A DNA stretch of 64,000 nt from a bacterium (GCA_043803945.1 JAZDJN010000016.1:64001-128000), one strand, 5' to 3'; positions 1,369 through 17,096 are shown, numbered from the stretch's first letter. Made by a program: numbers and translations. Notes: generated by a model from the letters alone, not told the origin.

Positions 1369-4300
1369 TTACCCCAGCGCCTCACTACACACTATTCTTG
1401 GGATATCTTTAGAACGATTTTCCAATTCATCCGCAGAATCTATTCGTTCTTGAATATTGTGTTGATGGTACAAACGAGACAAAGATTTGAGAAGTGATTT
1501 TCCGGTTACTCCGTTTCGACGAAGAAGATTCAACTCCCGGTTTACAGCAGAAGTCTGTGATGAGCGGAATGCTTTTTCCAAAATATTTATTTGTGCCTTT
1601 TCATCTTCATCCTCTGCAATCTTGAAAAGCATTCGGAGTTCACGAATAATGTATCGCTGTGATTGAGTTAATGAGACCGATTGGTCACGTTCAACAGCCC
1701 TTTGCTTTACCTCCTCATCAAATGCTTTTTTCACACTTATAACAATTGTATTGTGACCTATCGGTAATTTTCCACCCGGTTCCCGTTCGCCCACCTTTAC
1801 AGATCCAAGTATTCTGGGTAAATCTCTCGAAATTATTTTTCCATCTGAATCAGTAAGGAACAGTTGCTTATATGTCCCCGACTTTCAGAAGACAAATGTT
1901 CCTTTCGTACTCATAGTCTTTTTTGCCGTCCTAATACCATCACGGAGATTACTGATCCGCTCATATTCAGAGGGATTTTCCTTTCTCAATTGACGCATAA
2001 TTTCTTCTGCTTCATTGAGGTCGAGCATTTCACCTTCTTCATCCTCGAATAAACTTAATTGATCACCCCTCTTCTCATAGATAGCATACATTGCCTCTTC
2101 ATTTAACTGCTCTGTTTTATCAAGTATCTGTGCATCTTCACCGATTGTATCATGGATTTCCTGGATGCGATTGTGTAAGGTCTGTTTCAGTCCCAGGTTC
2201 TTATCGATACCTGTCTCCGGCAAGAAATTGTAGCCCCACACTACAAGATTCTCCGAACCTATACGATCAATTCGACCAAATCGTTGAATGAGGCGCACTG
2301 GATTCCAATGGAGATCATAATTAATCATCTTGTCACAATCCTGAAGATTGAGTCCCTCTGAGAGAATATCCGTGGCAATGAGCAAATTGATTTCAGTTTC
2401 TCCACGAGAGAATATGTAATCTGGATTTGACTTGGGGGAGAACCTGCCAACAACTTTTGTTTTACTTTTATCTCCACTGTAGATCACCTCAATCTCTGAT
2501 TGCTTTTGCCCTGGATTCAGATTATCAAAGAGATATTGTGCTGTATCGGAGTACTGAGTGAAGATAAGTAGTTTCCCATTTTTCAACGCATCCTGCTTTA
2601 ACCATGCAAATAATGTTTGCAGCTTTGCATCTTTTTCCGGAGTTATCTTTTCAACGATTGCCAACATTTCTTCGAGCAATCCCAGATCGTGCTTCACATC
2701 CTGTTTCAACTCTTCTGCTTCAAAATCATCAATCCGATATTTCTCACTTGCTTCAGTTAATGCGGTATAGAGGTCCGCCTCTCCATATTTGTCGGACTCA
2801 TAAAGGATGGCCTGCGCATCATCTCCTGCAGGGACAATTCCATTCTGCAGTGATTTCAAGAACGCTTTATGAATTCTGATCATTCTTTTCAATGTCTCAC
2901 AGAATGCGTAGACACTCGATTCGAACCGTTTGAACAGGAGTGTACGGATCAATCCATGCAAATTAGCACCGGCACGATGAAGATCTAAATATGGATATTT
3001 CTTCTGTTTTTCTTTCACAACATAATGCCATAGGCCATAGCGAGCGTAGAGTAATTCTTTTTGATTACTGCTTTTGCCTTCACGCTTCGGCTTTCCAAGA
3101 TAGCTGCGGAGTTTTTGATATAAACCGCTGTACGTATCTTCAATGCTATATTCTATGGTTTCTAATTCTCGTTTAGGGAAGAATTGATGCCTCCCGCTGA
3201 CAATGACATAGGCTCGTCTCTTACCAGATTTATATTCATCGAAGCGGTTCGGATCAATTGGCTGTTGCGTTTCACTGTTGAATCCGTACCATTTAAGAAT
3301 ATGATTGCGCGTACGGCGAATGAGGATATGAACCAGTAAATCCTGCAGGCGCCTCTCACCTTTTTCAATAAGATCGAAATACTTTTTTAAATCCTGTGGA
3401 TCGATAGGAAGATCGGTTTTATCCTCGGTATGAAATAGCTTGATCTGGTTATAGACATCGGTGACCGCTTTATTGCGTGGTGTTGCCGTGAGAAAGACAC
3501 TTCTTTTTCTTCCTGCACTCAGATATGCTTGCAGCATTTCGTAGCGCTGGGTTGTGTGATGCCGGAAATTGTGGCTTTCATCCACAAGAACAAAATCTCT
3601 GTCGCGATATTTCACATCATCGAGAAGAATATTCTTACCTGCTTCCTCTTGTTCTCTCAAATATCCCATTGAGAGGACGCGCGCATTCAGTTGATAGAGC
3701 TCGTTATATCGCTCCCACATATCGACAAGAGTCGCAGGACAAATAACAAGAGGGCGCGCATGATCTGTCCGTTCAAAGTGTTTGGCAATCGCGGCACCGA
3801 TATAACTCTTTCCCATACCGACAACATCGGCAACGAAAACGCCAGAATATTCTCGAATGATTTGCACCGCTTGCTTTACTGCAACACGCTGAAAATCCGC
3901 CAGCCTGGATGTAATTTCATCATCCCAAAGAATATCTGTTCCTTCACTTTCCTCAAGACGATCGCGGACAAGCTCGTAGAGAGTTTTCATATAAATATCA
4001 TATGGGCGCACCGGAGCCATAGCCCACGATTGCTTCAATTCAGTCATTAACGATTCATCAAAATCTTTTGCTTCATTCCAGAGATCATCGAACCATCGGG
4101 TAAGCTCGGCATGGTTATCCTCACCGTGTACTACGACATTCAGTTCTGTATTATGAGAAATACCGGAGAGTGTAAAGTTAGATGAACCGACAATAGCGAT
4201 ACCCTTTTCATACCTGCCGTCCTGCTTGTAATCAAAAATGTATGCCTTTGCATGAAGACGGCCTTTCGTATAGACTTTTACCTTTAGTTTCTTCTGCTCA

Positions 4301-4686
4301 ATAAGCGAGGCGACAGTAATGATCAGTTCCTCGCTTGCATCTGTTTGATCCATAAGCGAGACAGCTTCTTTGACATTTTCAGTGGTGGTTTTGACATTTC
4401 GTGTTTCATCCGAGCGTTTGATGAATTTGACTTGATTCGTTGCTTCTTCAACCAGCTCAAGACGCTTATAGCCCTCGGAGATTTGTTCAAGCGTCTGATA
4501 TTTTGTGGTATTCCCAATAAGCAAACGGATTTCTCCAACCTCATTAAGCTGTTTCCTCAATGGTTCAAAACCAGAGAGGAAGAAGTAACCAACAGCAAAC
4601 TTGGCACGTTCACTGGATGGCAAAATGCGGAGTATATGATCTATAAGTTTTTCGTTTCGGTTATCGATGATGTCATGTTGTGGCAT
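1369..4686 (-). CDS. PLD-nuclease + SNF2/superfamily-2 helicase, interrupted by one in-frame TGA at 1885-1887 (possible pseudogene)
   Basis: N-terminal PLD motif RLHAKAY...GSSN; helicase motifs ADVVGMGKS, DESH, TATP, SEGLNLQ, QRFGRIDR. ORFs 1885..4686 and 1369..1794 share a frame, which reads ...GTFVF*KSGTYKQLFLTDSDG... without another stop. Confidence 0.85.
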
Positions 4687-4910: not shown

Positions 4911-5516
4911 ATGACAAACATAACAATGCAATTGAATAACATTCATAGAGAAAAACTCCTCAACGCAATTCTCCTCTTTTCCAGAAAGACCAAATGTCCT
5001 TCCTTAGTGAAGATGTTCAAGCTGCTCTTCTTCCTTGATTTTTATCACTTCAAGCTCACGGGAAGAACTGTCACCGATCTCGATTATTATGCTTTGCCGT
5101 TTGGTCCGGTTCCAACCGATTTCTACAATGAGATCAAGGATGGCACTGTTCCCCCCGATATGGATCATTCATTTGCACTTGTACCATTGCAGACCGAACG
5201 CGGCACTCCAGCTTTTGAATTCAAATCAAAGAAACCTGCTGATCTCTCTGTGTTCTCACCTCGTGAGCAAAAGCTGCTCGATGATCTTGCTTTTGCTTTC
5301 AAGGATATTACTCCTTCCCAGATGACTGAGATTTCCCATCTGAAAAACCAGCCATGGGATAAAACTATAAAGGGCAAAGGCGCGAATACACTGATCGATT
5401 ACATGCTTGCCATTGACAACGAGGCAACGATTTCGATGGATGATGCTCGTGCCATGCTAATTGAGCATCGAGAGATGGCAAAGAATTTTTCGGTGAAACA
5501 CCATCTCTCAAAATAG
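4911..5516 (+). CDS. Panacea-domain (DUF4065/SocA/GepA) antitoxin
   Basis: KLLFFLDF...TGRTVTDLDYYALPFGPVP motif and C-terminal SH..PW, typical of DUF4065. Confidence 0.85.
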   Translation: MTNITMQLNNIHREKLLNAILLFSRKTKCPSLVKMFKLLFFLDFYHFKLTGRTVTDLDYYALPFGPVPTDFYNEIKDGTVPPDMDHSFALVPLQTERGTPAFEFKSKKPADLSVFSPREQKLLDDLAFAFKDITPSQMTEISHLKNQPWDKTIKGKGANTLIDYMLAIDNEATISMDDARAMLIEHREMAKNFSVKHHLSK

Positions 5517-5518
5517 AA

Positions 5519-5932
5519 ATGATCGCCGGTGATATTCTCTTTCATACTGACTTCACCTTCAACGACAAAACCAAAGGTGTAAAACTTCTTATTATTTTAA
5601 ACAATCCCGACTTATCCAAGAATGAGCCATTTCTTGTCATTCGAACCACCTCCCTCCTTAAGGGAAAGCAGATGCAACCTGGTTGTATCGCCGCGTGGAG
5701 ACTCTTTTTCATTCCACCAAGCGAAGGCGAGTTCTTCAAAGAGCCAACGCTCTTGCAGCTTGACGCCATCTACGAAATGGATGCGATAACTGCTGTGAGG
5801 AATGGAATTCATCATACTCTCAAGCAGATCGGACAACTTTCAGCGCTTACGCTCGCACAACTCAAAAACTGCCTGAAACAAATCAAAGATGACATCTCCG
5901 AGAAACACTACAAGCTCATTTTTAAAAAGTAG
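5519..5932 (+). CDS. Putative toxin, divergent PemK/MazF-like
   Basis: Starts 2 nt after the Panacea gene; GDILF..F.F.D....K.LIILN...FLVIRTTS pattern resembles PemK/MazF. Confidence 0.55.
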   Translation: MIAGDILFHTDFTFNDKTKGVKLLIILNNPDLSKNEPFLVIRTTSLLKGKQMQPGCIAAWRLFFIPPSEGEFFKEPTLLQLDAIYEMDAITAVRNGIHHTLKQIGQLSALTLAQLKNCLKQIKDDISEKHYKLIFKK

Positions 5933-6029: not shown

Positions 6030-9000
6030 TCATAATTGTCCCTCAACGATTTCAATCTCTTCTTCGGTCAACCCATATAGCTTGTACACTTGTTGATCGA
6101 TCTGTGCCTCAAAGTCTTTTGTATCATATGTTGGCATTCCCCTCTTTTTCGCCAAAATTTTCTCAACGATTGTAACAAATCGAGACTGGGACTTTTTATC
6201 AAGCAAGTAACAAGGAATAGCATTAAGTCCTTTAACACCTATATGTGGTGTAGCTTTGTTGCCTTTGCGGAGAATCTCTTTTTCAATTGCATAGAATGAA
6301 ATTAACTTTGAGTTTATCAATGCGCATATGTATAGCAGATCATATTTATCATTTTTTTGTGTACCCACCATGATTCCGTATGCACCATATATTCTTTCCT
6401 CTGAATAAGCACACATCAAATATTGACCAGATTCAGGAATAAATAGGCGTGGAACCAGATATCTCTTAGGATCACCAAGGACAAGGGTTTTACCGAAATC
6501 TCTAAGTTCTTTCTCTTTCCCCTGGTCGAAGCAGAAGTAGCCATCGCGATGATCCCATGCGTATGAATACCGGTTGATGGCATGTGTTCCTCCAAGATAT
6601 CTATAATAATTACTGTTCTTCTTTTCTGAGCAGAGAAAACTATCGAAACATCCTCCAATATTCACACCTCTATTGATAGTAATCAGATTGCCCAATACGC
6701 CATCAGCTCTTTCAATTTTTGCGGTTATCTGTCCATATAAAGAGAAATGAAACTCCAGATTTCTATTCGACCGAATTTCTTTAACATTTACTGTTACCGG
6801 TTCTTCTATTTGTCCCTTGTACCATTTAATCGGATACTCCTCTAGAAGTGGCTCGTTTTGAATGGAAAAGATTATGCAATCAACAATTGCTTCAAAAGGA
6901 TGAAGGTCTGTAATTAAGTACTCAATCCTCCCGTTTTCTAAAAGGAATCTACGGACGTATACATAAGAAGGTAACACCGATAACGTCTTATTAACGATGA
7001 AAACAGTTCTTCCTCTCCCAGTAGATATTATCATTGCCCGTTCAGCAAATAAATTCATGCTGTTGGTACGATCACTTTCGTTGAGTAATGAGTTGTAGTA
7101 TCGAATAAAGTAACGTTTCTCCTCGAGGGTTAAATCGTGACCAGTGTTACTATAGAATGAGATATAAGGTGGATTTCCAATTACGATATCAAATCCATCC
7201 TTTTCCCTAAAAACTTCCGCAAAATCCAACTTCCATACAAATGTGTCTATGAGCCTCCGAGTGTGCTCTGTTTCTTTTAGCTTTCCTTGTTGGACAGCAA
7301 TAAGTTTTTCTTTCGTATTTTTTGCCGGAAGCAAAAGCCGGTCGAGTTCTTTAATCTCCACCTTCATGGCATCGCGTTCTTCCTCCTCTGCTTTTTTAAG
7401 CCTACGTTCCCCAAATAATCCGCTTCCATATTTTGATTCGTACGCCTCAACTACTTGATCCTGCCGCAGTTTCAGGTAGAATGAAGCAAGATCGCATTGC
7501 TTGGAAAGTATTTTTAGTTCTGCCTCATGCTTCTTTTTCATATCCGATTCATAGAAGTAGGCGTGTTTGTCATTCTGAATACTGTCGATAAGCTGTTTGA
7601 GCTTCTCTCCTTTTTCTGTTACCTGCGGCAAGTTTAAATTTACATTGTATCCAAATAACTGGTCGATAAGACTGTTTCCCTGTCGTATCCGATAGCTTAA
7701 ATTAGGCAGCGGGGGAATATCTTTCCCTTCATAATCCACCACTAATGAGAGCCAGAGCCGCAGTTCACAAATTCGCACCGCTTGTTCCTGAATATCCACT
7801 CCGTACAGGCAATTTTCAATTAGCTTACGTTTGAGTTGGTAATCATAGTTTTCATGTCTTATTTCCTTTGTCCCTTTCAACACGATATCAAAGAGCTTAA
7901 TCACGGCAATCATCTCGTGGAGCATTCCAACAACGAATGCACCGGAGCCAACTGCAGGATCACACACACGGCATTGTAAGACCAATTGTTTCATCCTCTC
8001 AGCTTCCTGCGTAGTAAAGGAAGATCGAAGCCAGGTAAGTTCTTCCTCCGAAATCTGCGTAGCAGGATTGAGTGTGAACAGCTTTTCTATCTTCTCACGA
8101 TTCAAGCTTAGGCTTGTCTTCTCAGTTGCTCCTTCAATCAAATACTCCTTAAGCGATTGCTGGCACATGAAATGAACAATCACTCGCGGGGTATAATAGC
8201 TTCCGGTAGCTTTACGTAAATCGGTTTTGGGATTTTTTTCCAACGTCAAAATTAAGTTTTCAAAGACTTTTCCAAGCATTTCCGGATCGATTGCTACCTC
8301 CATATCCAGTGCTGTATCTTCACGAACGGTGAAGTTATAATGCTCGAAGAGTTCTTTGAACATTTTGCCAAAGGCTTTATTGCGAATCTTCAGTGGAAAT
8401 TCCCAATTTTCTATTTCGAACAGTCCACCGTTGAGGAAGGGAATTTCTCCGAGATGTTTGAATATCACTTCTGAGCTTGCGAGACGTTGGAAGACAGGAA
8501 GGGCTATTTCTGTGTAGTAGGAAATCTTCTCCGGTTGATTTTGGTATCCCTTCTTGAAGTGAGCATAAAGAAAATTCTTGTTCCCGTTCAGCCAGCCCTT
8601 CTTTTGAATGAAGTAGAGGAACATCAATCTGTTCAGGAGAATTTGCGATATCTCTGCCGATCGTTCAGCATATCTTGGATTAATTTCATCAATTTGATCT
8701 TTCAAGTAATCAAATATAATCCCGAATGATTTAAAGAAATCCTTTGTTACTGCTTCAACATCAAATGCTACATCATGCCGTTGCTGGAGTTCGAGGGGCG
8801 ATAGTTTTTTAGCATCCGGCACTTCGAGCATGGAAATGCGCTGAGCCGCTGTGTGCAACCGTTCATCCGGTCCGATGACAATTCGGCGGAAAATCTTGCG
8901 GCGACTCTCCTCTTCATCATACTTCACATTGATGAAGTGCCACTGCTGTTTGAGAGAATCAAAGAAGAGAAAGAGAGAATAGGGATGATCACGGAGAAGG

Positions 9001-9248
9001 TTATTGATAACGGGACGTTCGACACCAAGCAGGAGCTGGTCAACTTCACAATAAAGGACTTTAAAATCATCATGACCAGCAAGGATTTGAAGCTGTTTCA
9101 CCCTGCCATCAAGAGACGATGGGAACCTCTTTAAAGAAAGAGTCTTTGCAGCGTAATCATAATTGAGTAATGTAGAGAAGAGTTTTGCAGCATCATCGTG
9201 ACTTTTCAGGGATGATAAGCGAGCATAAACAGATTCATGCAATTCCAT
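6030..9248 (-). CDS. Eco57I-like/Type IIG N6-adenine DNA methyltransferase with C-terminal target-recognition region
   Basis: GSYYTP, DPAVGSGAF (motif I), GFDIVIGNPPY (motif IV), C-terminal IDQQVYKLYGLTEEEI. Start placed at ATG 9248 after ggag; the longer ORF start runs through a palindromic repeat. Confidence 0.9.
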   Translation of the reverse strand: MELHESVYARLSSLKSHDDAAKLFSTLLNYDYAAKTLSLKRFPSSLDGRVKQLQILAGHDDFKVLYCEVDQLLLGVERPVINNLLRDHPYSLFLFFDSLKQQWHFINVKYDEEESRRKIFRRIVIGPDERLHTAAQRISMLEVPDAKKLSPLELQQRHDVAFDVEAVTKDFFKSFGIIFDYLKDQIDEINPRYAERSAEISQILLNRLMFLYFIQKKGWLNGNKNFLYAHFKKGYQNQPEKISYYTEIALPVFQRLASSEVIFKHLGEIPFLNGGLFEIENWEFPLKIRNKAFGKMFKELFEHYNFTVREDTALDMEVAIDPEMLGKVFENLILTLEKNPKTDLRKATGSYYTPRVIVHFMCQQSLKEYLIEGATEKTSLSLNREKIEKLFTLNPATQISEEELTWLRSSFTTQEAERMKQLVLQCRVCDPAVGSGAFVVGMLHEMIAVIKLFDIVLKGTKEIRHENYDYQLKRKLIENCLYGVDIQEQAVRICELRLWLSLVVDYEGKDIPPLPNLSYRIRQGNSLIDQLFGYNVNLNLPQVTEKGEKLKQLIDSIQNDKHAYFYESDMKKKHEAELKILSKQCDLASFYLKLRQDQVVEAYESKYGSGLFGERRLKKAEEEERDAMKVEIKELDRLLLPAKNTKEKLIAVQQGKLKETEHTRRLIDTFVWKLDFAEVFREKDGFDIVIGNPPYISFYSNTGHDLTLEEKRYFIRYYNSLLNESDRTNSMNLFAERAMIISTGRGRTVFIVNKTLSVLPSYVYVRRFLLENGRIEYLITDLHPFEAIVDCIIFSIQNEPLLEEYPIKWYKGQIEEPVTVNVKEIRSNRNLEFHFSLYGQITAKIERADGVLGNLITINRGVNIGGCFDSFLCSEKKNSNYYRYLGGTHAINRYSYAWDHRDGYFCFDQGKEKELRDFGKTLVLGDPKRYLVPRLFIPESGQYLMCAYSEERIYGAYGIMVGTQKNDKYDLLYICALINSKLISFYAIEKEILRKGNKATPHIGVKGLNAIPCYLLDKKSQSRFVTIVEKILAKKRGMPTYDTKDFEAQIDQQVYKLYGLTEEEIEIVEGQL

Positions 9249-9307
9249 AAAGCTCCATTTGGTATTCTGCTGGTGTAGAGAATGGAGCTTCGGTTGGTGT
9301 CGTTCAT

Positions 9308-9384
9308 CTGTCATTCCCGCGTAAGCGGGAATCCAGCGCCTTACGGAGTGAGGCACTGGGTGCCCGCGTTCGCGAGCACGACAG
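9308..9384. repeat. REP/REPIN-like palindromic element (GTCATTCCCGC...GCGGGAATCC family)
   Basis: ctgtcattcccgcgtaagcgggaatccag...ctgggtgcccgcgttcgcgagcacgacag; relatives at 13742 and 16978. Confidence 0.8.
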
Positions 9385-9484
9385 AAAATCTTTTTCGGCT
9401 TCTTTGGTTCAGGGAGTATTTGGAGTTGACCGGCACTTACAATTCTTATGCCTTACAAAGTGACGGTCAACTATCGAGTCCAAT

Positions 9485-9640
9485 AAAAAAGGGTGCATCT
9501 TGCGATCACCCTCTCTGCGGGACACGACTCCCGGACCAAAAGATGAACGAAGTGCACCCCTTTCGGGGCGCATCCTCGATCTGTGTCTTTGGTCTTGAAT
9601 TATCGTGTTTTCAGAGAGACAGCAGCCGAAGCTGAGCCAA
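9485..9640 (-). ncRNA. Putative structured leader RNA/attenuator upstream of the methyltransferase
   Basis: Minus strand: CAGC-UUCG-GCUG hairpin; long stem (CUCUCUG/CAGAGAG, ACACGA/UCGUGU, GACCAAA/UUUGGUC) capped by a GAAA hairpin; then a GCAA hairpin followed by U6. Confidence 0.6.
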
Positions 9641-9866
9641 ATATGTTTTATCGTTTGGCGAAGTCCCGCACCCTGAGTTTATCGAAGGGTGGCGGGACTA
9701 CGCATTAGTTCATAAGTTTTAAGTCTATGAGTAAAAGATTCCTCTAATTGTAAATTATCATTGAATTTTGTTGCTCACCTCTTCTATAGGTTGCCTCTCT
9801 TGTCTGGCTACCTGAAGATCTAATATTAACGCATCAGGATGATCGACTGACTCTAGAATACTGATG

Positions 9867-10076
9867 TCACGCAAACATCAATCTCCCCTTTGGTATCGGG
9901 ATTTCTTTGCCTTCCTCTTTCGCAATTTCAATCCATTCCTGAATAACAATTTCAACATTTTTCATAGCATCGATGTAGGTTTCTCCATCTGCCATACAGC
10001 CCGGAAGCTCGGGGACCTCAGCGATAAACGCCTTATCTTCTTCACTCCAATAAATGATGACTTCATATTTACTCAT
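9867..10076 (-). CDS. hicB: HicB-family antitoxin
   Basis: MSKYEVIIYWSEEDKAFIAEVPELPGCMADGETY...IPIPKGRLMFA. Confidence 0.9.
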   Translation of the reverse strand: MSKYEVIIYWSEEDKAFIAEVPELPGCMADGETYIDAMKNVEIVIQEWIEIAKEEGKEIPIPKGRLMFA

Positions 10077-10131
10077 TGGCATCCGATTGTGCGAGCAAAA
10101 TAATCTCGAGCATTTTTTCGTATCTATCCAT
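10069..10131 (-). pseudogene. N-terminal remnant of a HicA-family toxin
   Basis: MDRYEKMLEIILLAQSDANE* resembles the KYEKLL.ILRG.SDANI start of HicA toxins; its stop overlaps the hicB start. Confidence 0.6.
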
Positions 10132-10338
10132 AACAATCCCTGTTGCAATATACAAAAACTAGAAGAAAATCCATCTTCTGTTTTCTATGAATATCAACTT
10201 CTGCAGTGAGAAAATGGGATGCAGTCCGGTGCAATTATTAATATGCTATATTGGTAAGAAAGAGATGTAGAGAAAAAAAAGTCTGACTTTATTTAAAGGA
10301 TCTCCCTACATAAAAGTCGGACTTTTTGCCCGTAGTCA

Positions 10339-10393
10339 TTATCCCTTCCAACTTGCCATAATCTCGCCGAAACACTCCAGGCCGCTTGGGATA
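10339..10393 (-). repeat. Displaced duplicate of the 3' end of the FAD oxidoreductase gene
   Basis: 10357-10393 is identical over 37 bp to 11728-11764; it encodes IPSGLECFGEIMASWKG* versus IPSGLECFGEIMNQWK*. Confidence 0.9.
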
Positions 10394-10422
10394 GCACATT
10401 AATAAACTTGCTTGGCAGTAAC

Positions 10423-10635
10423 CTATTGTATCACCACATACTCAGCAATGGATGTCGATTCAGGAACCGGCAGATTGTCTTGCTTCATTCCCTGTATATG
10501 CAACTCGATTGCTTGATGCATATTTCGTTCCGTCTCTTCTTTCGTCGCTCCTGTCGCTACGCAACCCGGTAGATCGGGTGAATAGGCGGAGAAGTTGTTG
10601 TTCACTTTTTCTACGACAATAAGAAATCGATACAT
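10423..10635 (-). CDS. hicB: HicB-family antitoxin (no hicA seen)
   Basis: FSAYSPDLPGCVATGATKEE...AIELHI.GM..D.LPVPE. Confidence 0.88.
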   Translation of the reverse strand: MYRFLIVVEKVNNNFSAYSPDLPGCVATGATKEETERNMHQAIELHIQGMKQDNLPVPESTSIAEYVVIQ

Positions 10636-10713
10636 CTAATTTTCCCTCGATTAAAAAGTTACCTTTAATATACAATCGTTTTTCACCTCGCACCCGATGT
10701 TTGTAAAATACTA

Positions 10714-11085
10714 TCAAAAACCACTTTGCTGATCATCGTGTTTCAAGTTATGTAGCACTTCTTCAAGCTGTTGAATCAATACCGGCAAGTCCACATGCAC
10801 AATCTGCCAAAGAATATCATAGTCTACATTTTCATAAGCATGGATAATGCGATTTCGTGTTCCTACAATATTCTTCCAAGGAATTATGGGAAACTGCACT
10901 TTTATTTCTTCCGTGACCTTTGAGGCAGCTTCACCGATAATTTCTATAAGTCGTACAAGTGCCAACGCCAATTGTTCGTCTGTATCAAGGTCAATGCGAC
11001 TCTTTGTTTGAGTAAATAGGACTGCTTTTCTTGCAGCATCAGCCATATGGCGAATACGAATCGTGTCTGATTTACGATTTGCCAT
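10714..11085 (-). CDS. HepT-like HEPN ribonuclease toxin (DUF86)
   Basis: IEIIGEAA, IPWK, RNRIIHAY (Rx4HxY); directly downstream of the MNT gene. Confidence 0.9.
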   Translation of the reverse strand: MANRKSDTIRIRHMADAARKAVLFTQTKSRIDLDTDEQLALALVRLIEIIGEAASKVTEEIKVQFPIIPWKNIVGTRNRIIHAYENVDYDILWQIVHVDLPVLIQQLEEVLHNLKHDDQQSGF

Positions 11086-11383
11086 AAACACTTGTCGCTT
11101 CTTTTACGATAGCATCTCGAAAATATTTGCTTAAACTGTTTTCAGTGTGCAGGTCAACAGTGCGGCCGAAGAGTGTCGTAAGTTCTTCCTGAATCTGAGC
11201 AAATGAGAAACCAGGAACGTGCCCCGATTCGAACTTGACGAGCAGATCGAGATCGCTGTCCGAACTACTATCTCCATGAAGTACAGATCCAAAGAGTGAT
11301 AATGTCTGGATATGGTATTCCCGGCATATATCTTCAAGTGTATTTGCACGGATGGCAGGGAAATATGTCAATAGTTGTTCCAT
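11072..11383 (-). CDS. MntA-like minimal nucleotidyltransferase antitoxin
   Basis: LFGSVLHGDSSSDSDLDLLV (GSx10DxD), LFGRTVDL; overlaps the HEPN gene. Confidence 0.9.
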   Translation of the reverse strand: MEQLLTYFPAIRANTLEDICREYHIQTLSLFGSVLHGDSSSDSDLDLLVKFESGHVPGFSFAQIQEELTTLFGRTVDLHTENSLSKYFRDAIVKEATSVYGKS

Positions 11384-14013: not shown

Positions 14014-16905
14014 TTACCGGATCAGCGCCCCCGCGATCACATCGTGCACTTCGGGCCGAACCCGTGAAATTTTGGAATTCTCTCTTGTGGGATAAACCCG
14101 ATTCGTGAGAAAAACAATAATCAAATTCTTTTCAGGATCTACTGCCACAGAAGTACCGGTAAATCCTGTATGAAGAAATGTCGAATCGGAGAGAAGATTT
14201 CCAGCCCAGGAGCGTTCGTGATTTTTCGTATCCCAGCCTATTCCGCGTGTACTTTGGAGAGACTGGCGCTTTGTGAACGAATCGATGATTGTCCTCTCGA
14301 GGTACCGCTCGCCTCCATAGATTCCGCCATTGAGTATCATTTGAAGAAATGTCGTCAGATCAGAGGCTGTTGAGAACAGCCCAGCATGACCGGACACACC
14401 ACCCAGGACGGAACAATTTTCATCATGAACGGTCCCCTGCACTGCCTTTCCCGTTTTTCGCCAGAATGTATCGACTTCGGTCGGCGCGATTCTATTCCAG
14501 AGACGTTGGGGCGGATTATACATCGTGTTCATCATTCCAAGCGGTTTGAAGAACACCGAATCAACATACCGATCAAGCGGTACATTTGTAACACGCTCAA
14601 TAATCTTTCCCATCGTAATCAATCCGAGGTCGCTGTAAATGGATGAATCTCCGGTCCGATAAATCAGCGGTGTGGCATAGATGGAGTCGAGCACGCACGC
14701 CGGCGTATCACAGAAATCGTAGAATCGCCTCCAAGCCGGCAAGCCACTGTTGTGCACCATCAGATTGTAGAGTGTGATGTGCTGCTTGCCTTGCTGGCCA
14801 AATTGAGGAATATACTTGACCACAGGATCACCAAGCCGGATCTTCCCTTCACCAACGAGTTTCATCACCGCACTTGTGGTCGTAATAACTTTTGTGACCG
14901 AAGCGAGATCGTAGATCGTTGATTGCTGAATCTTCTTCGCACCGGTTTCATAAGTCTGTTTACCGTACGCTTTATGATAGACAAGCATGCCGTTTCGTGC
15001 AACAGCAAGAACCGCGCCGGGAAATGCAGAATCCCGAATCGCACGCTGAATCACCTGATCAACATTTCTGAGCGCCTGACTGCTGAAGCCGGCTTCTTCC
15101 GGAAATCCGGTGCGCAACACCGAGCGCTGCAGTTCGACTCCATCACCGTATTTGAACATCCCAGGGATCGTTATTGGAAGCTTCCCATGAGACTCCGATT
15201 CTCCGAATACAATTTCTGCCGTTGCCTGCTCGATGGCATCATCATCGGAGTAGGCGCAAACATAAGCGTTCATCGTCGGAAGATCCATGGCGATGTAAGG
15301 ATTTCCAAACGAAATCCCGATCATGGATTTCTTCAGTTGAGCAATCTTTGCGACAAGTTCGCGCTGGTCCTTTCTCACAAAACCGGTCATCTCTCCCGAT
15401 CGGATGTGAAGATGAAATTGGAGAATGATAAGTTCCGCTCTCGCTGCACTGGCAAGTGCGTTTTCGAAATGAAGTTTATTACTTGACGAGTTTATCTGCA
15501 TGAACTCGGTGTTCTTTGTGCGATCGTTCAAAAGTGTATGAAAGCTTTTTCCATCAGTCAGGTCTTCAGATTCTGTAATAACGAGATCGAGAATTTTCTT
15601 TGAACTGGATTTTTGCAGCGGGAGAATACTGGTTTGATTGCCAAGGACCGTCACAGCATCGCGAGCGATCTTCAGAGCAAGCCGCCTGTGTTCTTCAATA
15701 TTGACATGCGCAGCGATCGATGCAGGGTCAATATATCTTTGCTGATGGAGCTTGAAACGTTCTTTGATTCTCAGGAGCTTCCGTACGGAATAATTCAGCC
15801 GCTCCTCCGAGAGTTCTCCTTTCCTCACCGCATCGACGATGGCATCGATCGCAACATCAGCATCGACAGGCATAAGTATCAGATCGACCCCTGCCTTGAG
15901 AGCCAGAACCGCAGACTCGCCTGCACCATACTTCATGGCAACGCCTTTCATCTCCATTGCATCGGTTACTATCAAACCAGAGAAGCATAATTCCTTTTGC
16001 AAGAGATCTGTAGTAATTCTCGGAGACAATGTGGCAGGGATTCCAGGGGCCGAGTCGAGCTTCGGCACAGCGATATGGCCGACCATTACAGACGCAAGCC
16101 CCGCTTCGAACGCCGCACGATAGGGTGCCAGTTCCACACTCATCAATCTGGCTTTATCACTATTCAAGGTTACGAGATTAAGATGAGTATCGACATCGGT
16201 ATCTCCATGACCCGGAAAGTGTTTCGCCGTGGCTAGCATGCCGCCCTCCTGTGTTCCTCTGACATACGCTGCTGCCATGGTTGACACAAGCTGAACATCA
16301 TCACCATACGAGCGGGTATTGATCACAGGATTTCGCGGATTAAGATTGATGTCAACCGTGGGCGCATAGTTTTGGTGGATGCCAAGGGCTCGGCCTTCGC
16401 GCGCGGTTGCTTTCGCCATGGCATAGGCATAGTCCGTATTTCGAGTTGCCCCGATCGCCATGGCGGACGGAAAGCTGGTTGCTCTGCGAACGCGCATTCC
16501 TGCTCCGTACTCATAGTCGGCACCGATAAGGAGCGGGACATCGGTAACAGCCTGAAGTTTATTAATCTGGATTGCTGTCTCATAGACATCGCCGACAGAA
16601 AAAATAAATCCGCCAATCTTTCTTTGTGATGCGAGGCGAATCATCTCCTGCCAGTGTTGGTCGTCATCGGCGTAGTACGGTGCTGTCGTCCAGACATGGA
16701 CAAGTTGTGCAGCCTTCTCCTCGAGTGTGAGATGTTGAAGCGTTGTTTCAACCCAGTCGAAAGCCGGCGTGATGATTTTCTCTGCTTCTTTCGGTGGAGG
16801 GGGTACGGGAAGTTGTTGTTCCCGTATTTGCGGCGGGCTGCAACTATTAATAAAAATGAGGCATATGCCCCCAAGCGCAACTTGAATATTCTTCAATCGC
16901 TTCAT
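14014..16905 (-). CDS. GH3 beta-N-acetylglucosaminidase fused to a beta-lactamase-like serine hydrolase (lipoprotein)
   Basis: Lipobox FINSC; KHFPGHGDTDVDTH and VTDAMEM (NagZ-type GH3); LASVTK (SxxK), YSD and HTGFTG in the C-terminal domain. Start moved out of the upstream repeat. Confidence 0.9.
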   Translation of the reverse strand: MKRLKNIQVALGGICLIFINSCSPPQIREQQLPVPPPPKEAEKIITPAFDWVETTLQHLTLEEKAAQLVHVWTTAPYYADDDQHWQEMIRLASQRKIGGFIFSVGDVYETAIQINKLQAVTDVPLLIGADYEYGAGMRVRRATSFPSAMAIGATRNTDYAYAMAKATAREGRALGIHQNYAPTVDINLNPRNPVINTRSYGDDVQLVSTMAAAYVRGTQEGGMLATAKHFPGHGDTDVDTHLNLVTLNSDKARLMSVELAPYRAAFEAGLASVMVGHIAVPKLDSAPGIPATLSPRITTDLLQKELCFSGLIVTDAMEMKGVAMKYGAGESAVLALKAGVDLILMPVDADVAIDAIVDAVRKGELSEERLNYSVRKLLRIKERFKLHQQRYIDPASIAAHVNIEEHRRLALKIARDAVTVLGNQTSILPLQKSSSKKILDLVITESEDLTDGKSFHTLLNDRTKNTEFMQINSSSNKLHFENALASAARAELIILQFHLHIRSGEMTGFVRKDQRELVAKIAQLKKSMIGISFGNPYIAMDLPTMNAYVCAYSDDDAIEQATAEIVFGESESHGKLPITIPGMFKYGDGVELQRSVLRTGFPEEAGFSSQALRNVDQVIQRAIRDSAFPGAVLAVARNGMLVYHKAYGKQTYETGAKKIQQSTIYDLASVTKVITTTSAVMKLVGEGKIRLGDPVVKYIPQFGQQGKQHITLYNLMVHNSGLPAWRRFYDFCDTPACVLDSIYATPLIYRTGDSSIYSDLGLITMGKIIERVTNVPLDRYVDSVFFKPLGMMNTMYNPPQRLWNRIAPTEVDTFWRKTGKAVQGTVHDENCSVLGGVSGHAGLFSTASDLTTFLQMILNGGIYGGERYLERTIIDSFTKRQSLQSTRGIGWDTKNHERSWAGNLLSDSTFLHTGFTGTSVAVDPEKNLIIVFLTNRVYPTRENSKISRVRPEVHDVIAGALIR

Positions 16906-16977
16906 CCGGAAATCCCACAGAGACATGTTCAGTGAATGACCCCACCAAAGACGGTGGCTTCTGAAAAATAAAGAGAA

Positions 16978-17096
16978 TGTCATCCCGTGCTTGACACAGG
17001 ATCCAGATCACAGTCAAAGAACTGGATTCTGGTTCTTCCCCGCCTGCGAATAAGATTCTCTCGAGGTGGGCAGGGCTTCGCTCGACCGGAATGACT
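16978..17096. repeat. REPIN-like palindromic element
   Basis: tgtcatcccgtg...caggatccag...ctggattctgg...ccggaatgac. Confidence 0.7.

Follow-up and report, generated by a model that had tools for sequence, protein, structure and literature searches.

Genes and features at the locus

A stretch of 64,000 nucleotides of bacterial DNA (GCA_043803945.1 JAZDJN010000016.1:64001-128000), hereafter the window, contains a structured RNA upstream of a restriction-modification (RM) gene. The RNA lies on the minus strand at 9480-9639, as delimited by a covariance-model match that spans model positions 1-165. The gene behind it (6030-9248, minus strand, ATG at 9248-9246) encodes a Type IIG-like RM enzyme (Eco57I/MmeI-type methyltransferase with TaqI_C) that matches the Pfam families Eco57I (2.3e-26) and TaqI_C (4.8e-08), and also N6_Mtase and MmeI_Mtase. 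Its start was picked by the spacing of the Shine-Dalgarno sequence (SD) and by an N-terminus common to the loci L076 and L010. An earlier note, made from the sequence alone, had described a tetraloop-rich RNA with a terminator about 240 nt ahead of the methyltransferase start, and the U-run of the RNA indeed ends 237 nt ahead of the ATG. Judged from comparative sequence analysis, the RNA is probably the pseudoknotted 5' domain of the RM transcript and a member of a riboswitch-like family of conditional-terminator leaders, to which the RM members would add a mask over the SD.

The minus strand of the element folds in RNAfold with a minimum free energy of -70.5 kcal/mol, against -47.0 ± 4.5 kcal/mol for 200 dinucleotide shuffles (z -5.20; 0/200 as good), whereas the plus strand folds less well (-59.3 kcal/mol, z -3.67). 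The minimum free energy structure reproduces the hairpins read by eye. The hairpins and stems listed in the earlier note, with the three tetraloops (UUCG, GAAA and GCAA), are all found on the minus strand where it had put them. The covariance model R1 matches the window copy with 167.7 bits, and the model R2 matches it with 138.5 bits (G000:C16:73480-73639, E 4.3e-31).

The RNA opens with the hairpin P1, CAGC-UUCG-GCUG (9634-9623, minus strand, as are all parts of the RNA), which is helix 1 of the model and is 96.5% paired in an alignment of 33 members (n=33). P1 and the linker that follows it make up a 17-mer, AGCUUCGGCUGCUGUCU, which is invariant in the RM sub-family. The linker CUGUCU (9617-9622) is the 5' strand of a proposed pseudoknot, PK1, assigned by an own-versus-cross duplex test; its 3' strand is the internal-loop segment AGACACAG (9581-9588), located by a duplex computed for the locus L008 and by alignment columns. 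A long interrupted stem is formed by P2 (CUCUCUG at 9612-9618 with CAGAGAG at 9511-9517), P3 (ACACGA at 9603-9608 with UCGUGU at 9522-9527) and P4 (GACCAAA at 9588-9594 with UUUGGUC at 9534-9540), and is closed by the apical hairpin P5, GCGCCCC-GAAA-GGGGUGC (9554-9571), which is helix 7 and is 95.1% paired. A junction helix, H_a, which lay outside the model, joins the junction strands on either side of the P3 3' arm and consists in the window of GGGA (9529-9532) and UCCC (9519-9522).

The terminator-like hairpin AGGGUG-AUC-GCAA-GAU-G-CACCCU (9485-9512; helix 8), with 6+3 bp and one bulged G, is followed by six U. A G+C-rich stem-loop and then a U-run, the form of an intrinsic terminator, are therefore present at 9512-9485. 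A simple promoter and terminator scan did not pick this terminator up, because of the bulged G. The first two bases of the hairpin (9512-9511) double as the last two of the 3' arm of the long stem, an overlap that had also been read correctly by eye.

Covariation and conservation of the fold

The first covariance model was built from six close sequences and was followed by model-guided alignments; when two subgroups were aligned together by MAFFT and folded by RNAalifold, the outer stems came out wrongly paired. The alignment of 33 diverse members was fitted to the model and thus favours the structure being scored. In this alignment the nested structure (P1, the long stem P2-P5 and the terminator) is 92.8% paired, and 44 of its 51 pairs show compensatory double changes. 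Its covariation score of 0.694 compares with 0.238 for shuffles (0/500 reach the real score) and at most 0.126 with the partners slid. A model-free MAFFT alignment of 22 RM-type sequences is 85.5% paired and shows compensatory changes in 19 of 56 pairs, and its score was matched by 0/500 shuffles. A test of covariation among homologues, which the earlier note had proposed, thus came out in favour of the fold in both alignments.

Support extends to the individual helices. Compensatory changes occur in all six modelled pairs of P2 (n=33) and in 5/9 within the RM sub-family, while 7/7 pairs of P3 (98.7% paired) and 8/8 pairs of P4 covary. The terminator helix is 91.7% paired, 8/9 of its pairs covary, and the U-run is kept in aligned relatives. 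Of the tetraloops, UUCG in P1 is conserved in the RM sub-family only, GAAA in P5 is common without being universal and GCAA in the terminator is not conserved. G-U and U-G pairs are common in homologues at several positions (UG in 17/33 at pair 105-155, for example), as had been supposed from the single sequence. Such pairs would be A-C mismatches on the opposite strand, which marks the minus strand as the sense strand.

Both H_a and PK1 covary although neither was in the model. H_a is 87.7% paired with compensatory changes in 4/5 pairs (0/500 shuffles), its key pair being CG in 12, UA in 10 and GC in 3 sequences, and GGGA/UCCC of the window is replaced by GGGCA/UGCCU or GGUA/UACC in relatives (5' strand also GGGUA). 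PK1 pairs the linker after P1 with the internal loop 5' of P5, and its partners change together across subfamilies (UGUCU/AGACA, UGUUCU/AGAACA, GUUUUC/GAAAAC, AGUUCUU/AAGAACU). Its duplex energy is -8.44 kcal/mol for a sequence's own strands and -6.80 kcal/mol for crossed strands, with 0/2000 permutations as low and two negative controls flat. The chain of hairpins first recognized by eye is therefore present, but the fold is more complex than a chain, with the junction helix, the pseudoknot and, in RM-type members, an SD-masking module in addition. The stretch does encode a genuine folded RNA, about 160 bases long and conserved.

A further relationship was found between P5 and the terminator. 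In every subfamily the terminator 3' arm copies the P5 5' arm, so that the P5 3' arm can pair with it. In the own-versus-cross test this pairing of the two 3' arms scored -12.95 for own and -10.08 for cross combinations, with 0/2000 permutations as low; the true helices gave signals of like strength, -13.97 versus -11.10 (P5) and -12.12 versus -8.33 (terminator). The pairing comprises 8 contiguous bp in the window, between GGGGUGCA (9560-9553), which is the P5 3' arm extended by one base, and UGCACCCU (9497-9490).

A leader peptide was considered and rejected. The candidate, a 54-aa open reading frame (ORF) at 9409-9573, has its AUG inside P5, where relatives have GUG, CUG or UUG, and the variation in P5 is compensatory and not synonymous. 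An ORF on the plus strand (9282-9635) matched no Pfam family.

Occurrence of related RNAs

Three copies of the RNA are present in the 5.5-Mb genome of the window, as found by BLAST and by the two covariance models, and the 17-mer AGCUUCGGCUGCUGUCU occurs in that genome exactly three times. Each copy heads a different RM gene, namely the Eco57I-type gene of the window, an N6_N4_Mtase gene on contig C80 and a TypeIII_RM_meth + N6_N4_Mtase gene on contig C51. The C80 copy is 84% identical to that of the window over the core. The C51 copy is much more diverged, with 106.8 bits against 163.3 and 138.5 for the others.

These copies bear on the proposal that the element is a mobile repeat or a site acting as DNA (a repetitive extragenic palindrome (REP), a miniature inverted-repeat transposable element, a recombination site or operator palindromes) and not an RNA. 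Such a site would account for inverted repeats on both strands, including the plus-strand z of -3.67, for several copies in one genome and for the REP-like palindrome in the same leader at 9313-9332. It is nevertheless very improbable. Just three copies, at most 84% identical, are found in 5.5 Mb, and each stands at the head of a gene; the frequent G-U pairs would fail to match if the element acted as DNA or were read from the opposite strand; and the compensatory changes preserve pairing and not sequence. No match was found in plasmid or phage collections, and none of eight viral contigs holds a full-length member. The 17-mer loci on these eight contigs are partial and score 14-26.5 bits, where true members exceed 60, and were set aside as chance matches. 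The many-copy repeat that the earlier note had weighed against its own reading was accordingly not found.

Beyond this genome the RNA is patchy. BLAST detected relatives in 11/61 related genomes, the window's own counted. With R2, 151 evenly drawn class genomes gave 31 matches in 17 of them (1-4 per genome), and 20 of 151 genomes sampled from the phylum had matches, nine of these 20 lying outside the class. An exact scan of 185,579 species genomes for the 17-mer returned at least 117 loci. Full-length matches scoring above 60 bits number 38 among those listed, in 37 loci; about 80 of the 117 listed loci are chance matches and not members, as an estimated 70 or so would arise by chance from a 17-mer in 596 Gb. 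In the matches listed, true members carry the record titles Ignavibacteria, Ignavibacteriota, Ignavibacteriales and Bacteroidota, and further Verrucomicrobiae, Limisphaerales, Verrucomicrobiota, Planctomycetota and Ca. Aquilonibacter. Five of these genomes from other phyla, searched whole, hold 10, 1, 1, 2 and 5 copies, the 10 being in a Verrucomicrobiae genome. Records titled Ignavibacteria, Verrucomicrobiota and Planctomycetota share an identical P1 17-mer of the RM type. This patchy, multi-copy occurrence points to an accessory regulatory element and not to a housekeeping RNA.

The locus of the closest relative, L009 (G016:C3), carries two tandem copies of the RNA about 590 nt apart (912-1663). 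Behind the first, a complete RM-type leader with the anti-SD motif described below is present but leads into no ORF, as though gene loss or cassette exchange had orphaned it. A 121-aa gene follows the second.

Genes downstream of the RNA

The RNA is mostly co-oriented with the next gene. For 30 copies of the unbiased class sample, the next ORF downstream with 100 aa or more shares the strand of the RNA in 26 and lies within 240 nt in 22. Two of the remaining copies have an opposite ORF (in one case a short ORF overlapping a longer same-strand ORF, in the other a short locus) and two have no such ORF. Upstream genes in the same sample are mixed, with 12 on the same strand and 9 on the opposite one. 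In many relatives a start codon with a strong SD is placed only 10-40 nt past the U-run, and in other phyla, where the same strand alone was examined, the gap is at most 75 nt in 17 of 19 copies. Gaps of 10-40 nt leave no room for a separate promoter, so that such genes must be read through the terminator. This need for read-through is the main argument for a conditional terminator acting in cis. The cis-regulatory attenuator suggested in the earlier note is thus favoured by covariation, by the stem and U-run, by the co-orientation and by the short gaps.

Four sets of genes behind the RNA were examined. Pfam assigned 15 of the 29 genes behind copies of the 17-mer type to RM or DNA-methyltransferase families, and the window's own makes 16. 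The families represented are N6_N4_Mtase, TypeIII_RM_meth, Eco57I/MmeI, N6_Mtase + HSDR_N, ResIII/HsdR and C-5 DNA_methylase. Of the other genes in this group, three have Sel1, Trypsin_2 or receiver domains and 11 have no family. No RM gene was found among 20 genes behind the other copies of the class sample, which include four with Por_Secre_tail (sorting domain for type IX secretion systems, T9SS), three PAS sensors and six without a family; BNR, FG-GAP, Laminin_G_3, BACON/PKD, DUF4352 and TPR domains also occur in this set. Ten genes from other classes of the phylum comprise five of SusC-like type (CarbopepD_reg_2; three also with Plug), one receiver and four without a family. Two of 15 genes from other phyla are N6_N4_Mtase genes, and the rest are of secreted type or without assigned function. 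The link to RM genes is confined to one sub-family, that with the invariant P1 17-mer, and recurs in Verrucomicrobiota. Control of a defence locus, as first supposed, therefore stands only in part, since the RNA is not private to this methyltransferase or to defence and is also found before genes for secreted proteins, T9SS cargo, SusC-like receptors and PAS proteins.

In three loci (L009:310-672, minus; L022:2275-2640, plus; L074:225-647, minus) the first gene behind the RNA encodes a small protein of about 121-141 aa with the N-terminus MSQPRYDQHGRLLSDAEF and no Pfam family, and a longer gene comes next.

The variety of these genes raises the question of whether the leader senses anything. 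It could be a constitutive, portable cassette of promoter and 5' untranslated region that travels with accessory genes and responds to no ligand or signal, serving to stabilize the mRNA, to keep expression low by a leaky terminator or to recruit a processive antitermination factor. The same leader indeed precedes unrelated genes (at least five RM or methyltransferase Pfam families and secreted proteins), its occurrence is patchy (17/151 class genomes), and the identical 17-mer in three record-title groups, among the matches listed, suggests transfer together with genes. Against this stands a fold too elaborate for a stabilizer or a simple leaky terminator (compensatory changes in 44/51 pairs and in 4/5 pairs of H_a, and PK1), with a terminator that mimics an aptamer helix (P5/terminator, 0/2000 permutations). 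The copies within one genome have moreover diverged by compensatory changes, C80 being 84% identical and C51 much less, which argues for long-term selection on structure and not for recent spread. A cassette without sensing is hence considered rather unlikely, and a conditional terminator is preferred.

The leader between the RNA and the RM gene

In RM-type members the terminator is followed by a longer leader with conserved parts of its own. Directly behind the window terminator a GGAC (9478-9481, minus strand), read by eye and weakly supported, is complementary to GUCC at 9523-9520; its counterpart in other RM-type leaders is GGAUAC or CUGAGGCAC. The segment after the U-run that is complementary to the junction and P2 3' region is 88.8% paired in 22 sequences, in which it is near-invariant, and a second segment, complementary to the end of P4, is 76.5% paired with little variation.

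Just ahead of the gene lies a conserved motif, GACAC..CCGAAGCUCC, which in the window reads GACACCAACCGAAGCUCCAUU (9281-9301, minus strand). Its 3' part, AGCUCCAUU, is the anti-SD strand and pairs (9289-9281) with AAUGGAGCU (9259-9251), in which the SD GGAG (9256-9253) is contained. This SD-masking hairpin is conserved in RM-type leaders, as a module 190-240 nt beyond the RNA. In the genome of the window the hairpin of motif and SD occurs only behind copies of the RNA, and all three RM leaders have both the 17-mer and the motif. The 17-mer and the anti-SD motif are complementary, by reading, over 15 bp with two 1-nt bulges. Complementarity of the 5' half of the motif to P1 and the linker would explain why both are invariant.

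A comparable extension is seen in Verrucomicrobiota. Three different methyltransferase genes in two Verrucomicrobiota genomes (L184, L187 and L189) share a post-terminator leader of about 60 nt that starts with AGGCAC (AGGUAC in L189), complementary to the junction strand GUGCCU, and has a small hairpin before the start codon. The RM-type extension thus recurs across phyla.

The REP-like palindrome mentioned above, ATTCCCGC-N4-GCGGGAAT with ends of the type GTCATTCC, lies between the RNA and the gene in the window (9313-9332) and is also present in the C80 and C51 leaders (L002 and L003). Its exact form occurs at two genome loci only, while GTCATTCC[CG] occurs 154 times. In peat RNA libraries the summed contig depth over 9303-9336 is very high, a sign that this stretch is common in many organisms.

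Transcription and upstream sequence

Peat metatranscriptomes (four runs, four studies) yielded contigs 85-95% identical to the RNA, one of them 168 nt long and covering 9481-9633; contigs as such cannot show transcript ends. The methyltransferase ORF (8900-9271) had no cover in the four peat runs, in which the shares are small (0.04-0.06) and the evidence consists of contigs only. The peat contigs are a weak hint of expression of relatives of the RNA.

Five loci from other classes of the phylum (L176, L179-L181 and L183) share, by eye, the sequence TTTGCGAT(T/A)CTTCA...TA(T)TTGAAGC directly upstream of the RNA. This sequence resembles the Bacteroidetes sigma-A promoter boxes given in PMC9723704 (TAnnTTTG), and with such a promoter transcription would begin at the first bases of the RNA. 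About 25 nt upstream of the RNA, the window carries a hairpin of 13 bp, AGUCCCGC(C)ACCCU...AGGGUGCGGGACU (9660-9699, minus strand), which no U-run follows. The same hairpin is present at L009, where similarity runs 118 nt upstream of the RNA, and the genome has GGGTGCGGGACT twice.

An AT-rich, promoter-like region just upstream of the element, together with the conserved terminator, would also fit a small RNA of about 155 nt that acts in trans from its own promoter, or a leader with both functions. By pairing with the motif GACAC..CCGAAGCUCC of the three RM leaders, for example, such an RNA could co-ordinate their translation. The invariant 17-mer and the anti-SD motif are complementary and both are present in all three RM leaders of the genome, and contigs of about the size of the RNA occur in RNA libraries. 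The arrangement of genes speaks against this model. A trans-acting RNA would be placed independently of the orientation of its neighbours, but 26/30 copies are co-oriented with the downstream gene, as against 12 to 9 for upstream genes, and the promoterless gaps of 10-40 nt argue that the downstream gene needs read-through. Most family members, moreover, have no complementary motif downstream, and the duplex test fails to separate the real 5' end from shuffled versions. A trans-acting role is thus judged unlikely, and the discussion below returns to the leader acting in cis.

The wider neighbourhood contains further defence or toxin-antitoxin genes. Upstream of the RNA, the same strand carries a HicB-like gene and a HepT/MNT pair, and HepT-like genes were also seen by eye upstream of the RNA in L078 and L074. 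Parts of a defence or toxin-antitoxin island were recognized by Pfam at 1885-4686 (minus), 4911-5932 (plus) and 9867-11383 (minus). The island holds a fusion of a PLD nuclease and an SNF2 helicase (PLDc_2, SNF2-rel_dom, Helicase_C), a gene with a SocA/Panacea antitoxin domain next to a partner ORF, and the HicB-like and HepT/MNT genes. Farther away, a 989-aa ORF (14014-16983, minus strand) carries domains of glycoside hydrolase family 3 in fusion with one of the Beta-lactamase family and is unrelated to the RNA.

Comparison with known RNAs and regulatory systems

Searches against Rfam 15, the first check that the earlier note had suggested, placed no known family on the element. For the window (8800-10400, E <= 10) three weak matches to miRNA and snoRNA models were returned, none overlapping 9480-9639. 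Thirteen homologue loci gave 0 matches at E <= 1, and 11 loci from other classes gave six weak matches at E <= 1, none on the RNA. No account of such an RNA came up in full-text searches of the literature or in passages found by term in PMC11109978, PMC8632094, 10.64898/2026.10.21.760802 and PMC9723704. The family is apparently undescribed.

Among known RNAs, riboswitches with intrinsic-terminator platforms (GEMM-I, c-di-GMP-II) are similar in being co-oriented 5' leaders in which a pseudoknotted domain is followed by a terminator, and in having several copies per genome. The regulons of c-di-GMP riboswitches are rich in secreted, surface and signalling genes, and a similar set of secreted or surface and signalling (PAS, receiver) genes is found downstream of the RNA described here. 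It differs from them in that no Rfam model, theirs among them, matches the window RNA (E <= 10) or 24 homologue loci (E <= 1). The RNA shares with riboswitches a conserved, covarying structured domain and a position in a 5' leader co-oriented with the gene. As regards an expression platform, the mimicry between P5 and the terminator covaries, while P5 is an apical hairpin with no established competitor for its 5' arm. RM genes were not encountered as a riboswitch target in the literature searches.

Control of RM operons by C proteins or antisense RNAs resembles the present case in that a regulatory element heads the operon and could limit or time its expression. It differs in that here the element is a sense-strand structured leader with a terminator and an SD-masking hairpin, which also occurs before non-RM genes. 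The Pfam scan of the neighbouring ORFs found no helix-turn-helix controller family, the toxin-antitoxin genes (HicB-like, HepT/MNT) being found instead; no search for C-boxes was made.

EAR (in eps operons of Bacillales) and put (in phage HK022) are structured RNAs that start long accessory operons and act in cis on RNA polymerase. They are similar as structured RNAs at the start of accessory operons, but they suppress downstream terminators and are not known to have a conserved terminator of their own immediately after them, and no Rfam match was obtained here. A SAM-I leader whose terminated product acts in trans is reported in 10.1101/803072, and a terminated leader of about 150 nt could likewise act on other transcripts here. 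For the window RNA, complementary motifs are present in three leaders of the genome, and a dual role of this kind is a possibility.

Two further candidates were rejected. Chlorobi-1 (RF01696; 67 positions), which consists of two stem-loops and then a terminator, is known from the sister lineage Chlorobi; its best matches in the genome reach at most 15.3 bits against a cut-off of 50, none of them at the three RNA loci. A retron msr-msd was dismissed, as Pfam scans of the ORFs flanking the RNA in the window (RM enzyme, HicB-like, HepT/MNT) contained no reverse transcriptase.

Mechanism and biological significance

The following mechanism is proposed for the RNA as a conditional terminator. When the long stem P2-P5 and the terminator form, transcription would stop at the U-run and a short RNA would be released. 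An effector may perturb the fold and open P5, whereupon the P5 3' arm could capture the terminator 3' arm, and the polymerase would read into the gene. Once P5 is open, the pairing of the two 3' arms would pre-empt the terminator. A fold of such complexity, present in regulon-like copy numbers, would favour a small ligand as the effector, and a protein would be equally compatible with the data. In the read-through leader of the RM sub-family, the motif GACAC..CCGAAGCUCC is predicted to fold back on the SD and mask it, and the invariant 5' end (P1 and linker), being complementary to the motif, may release the SD.

Several observations weigh against this scheme. P5 is an apical hairpin capped by a tetraloop and should fold fast and stably, which is unusual for a switching element, so that its likeness to the terminator could have another cause, for instance a shared protein site. 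RM, secreted, receptor and sensor genes share no obvious metabolite, and hence no ligand can be proposed from the context. Kinship among the sequences inflates all the shuffle statistics to some degree. The post-terminator helices are mostly invariant and so are backed by conservation and not by covariation. Release of the SD by the 5' end is at best weakly suggested by complementarity, as the best duplexes of the 5' end with the anti-SD motif have energies of -19 to -29 kcal/mol, compared with means of -18 to -25 kcal/mol for shuffled 5' segments, and the best site falls on the motif in just 12 of 31 leaders. The gap of 237 nt contains, right behind the terminator, a sigma-70-like site (TTGACC-17-AAGAAT, 9470-9442, minus strand; one found against 0.9 expected by chance), and the RM gene may therefore have its own promoter. 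Finally, the contigs in RNA libraries come from relatives, carry-over of DNA is possible, and one contig reaches about 120 nt upstream of P1. The sigma-70-like site itself overlaps an inverted repeat (TTGACCG...CGGTCAA) and is not conserved in the C80 copy.

With three copies here, 1-4 in genomes of the class and 10 in one Verrucomicrobiae genome, the copy numbers show a regulon-like spread. A wider and more tentative idea is that the family is a new class of riboswitch or factor-sensing leader in Bacteroidota (Ignavibacteria and further classes), Verrucomicrobiota, Planctomycetota and others, by which one signal would jointly set the levels of RM enzymes and of secreted, surface and receptor proteins. 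If this were true, phage defence within the cell would be linked to the cell surface by an RNA-controlled regulon of up to 10 members in one genome. For the RM branch, a single domain of the RNA would then gate both transcription, by the terminator, and translation, by the long-range SD mask.

Control of RM systems is usually ascribed to C proteins, promoter methylation or antisense RNAs. A pseudoknotted sense-strand leader common to at least five unrelated RM or methyltransferase families would add a new layer of control over defence genes. Being widespread, multi-copy and absent from Rfam, the family has the profile of orphan riboswitch candidates, and the genes behind it (RM enzymes, T9SS cargo, SusC-like receptors and PAS sensors) suggest a signal not yet linked to RNA sensing. 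The covariance model and about 100 examples provide a handle on the regulation of accessory genes in Ignavibacteria, Verrucomicrobiota and Planctomycetota.

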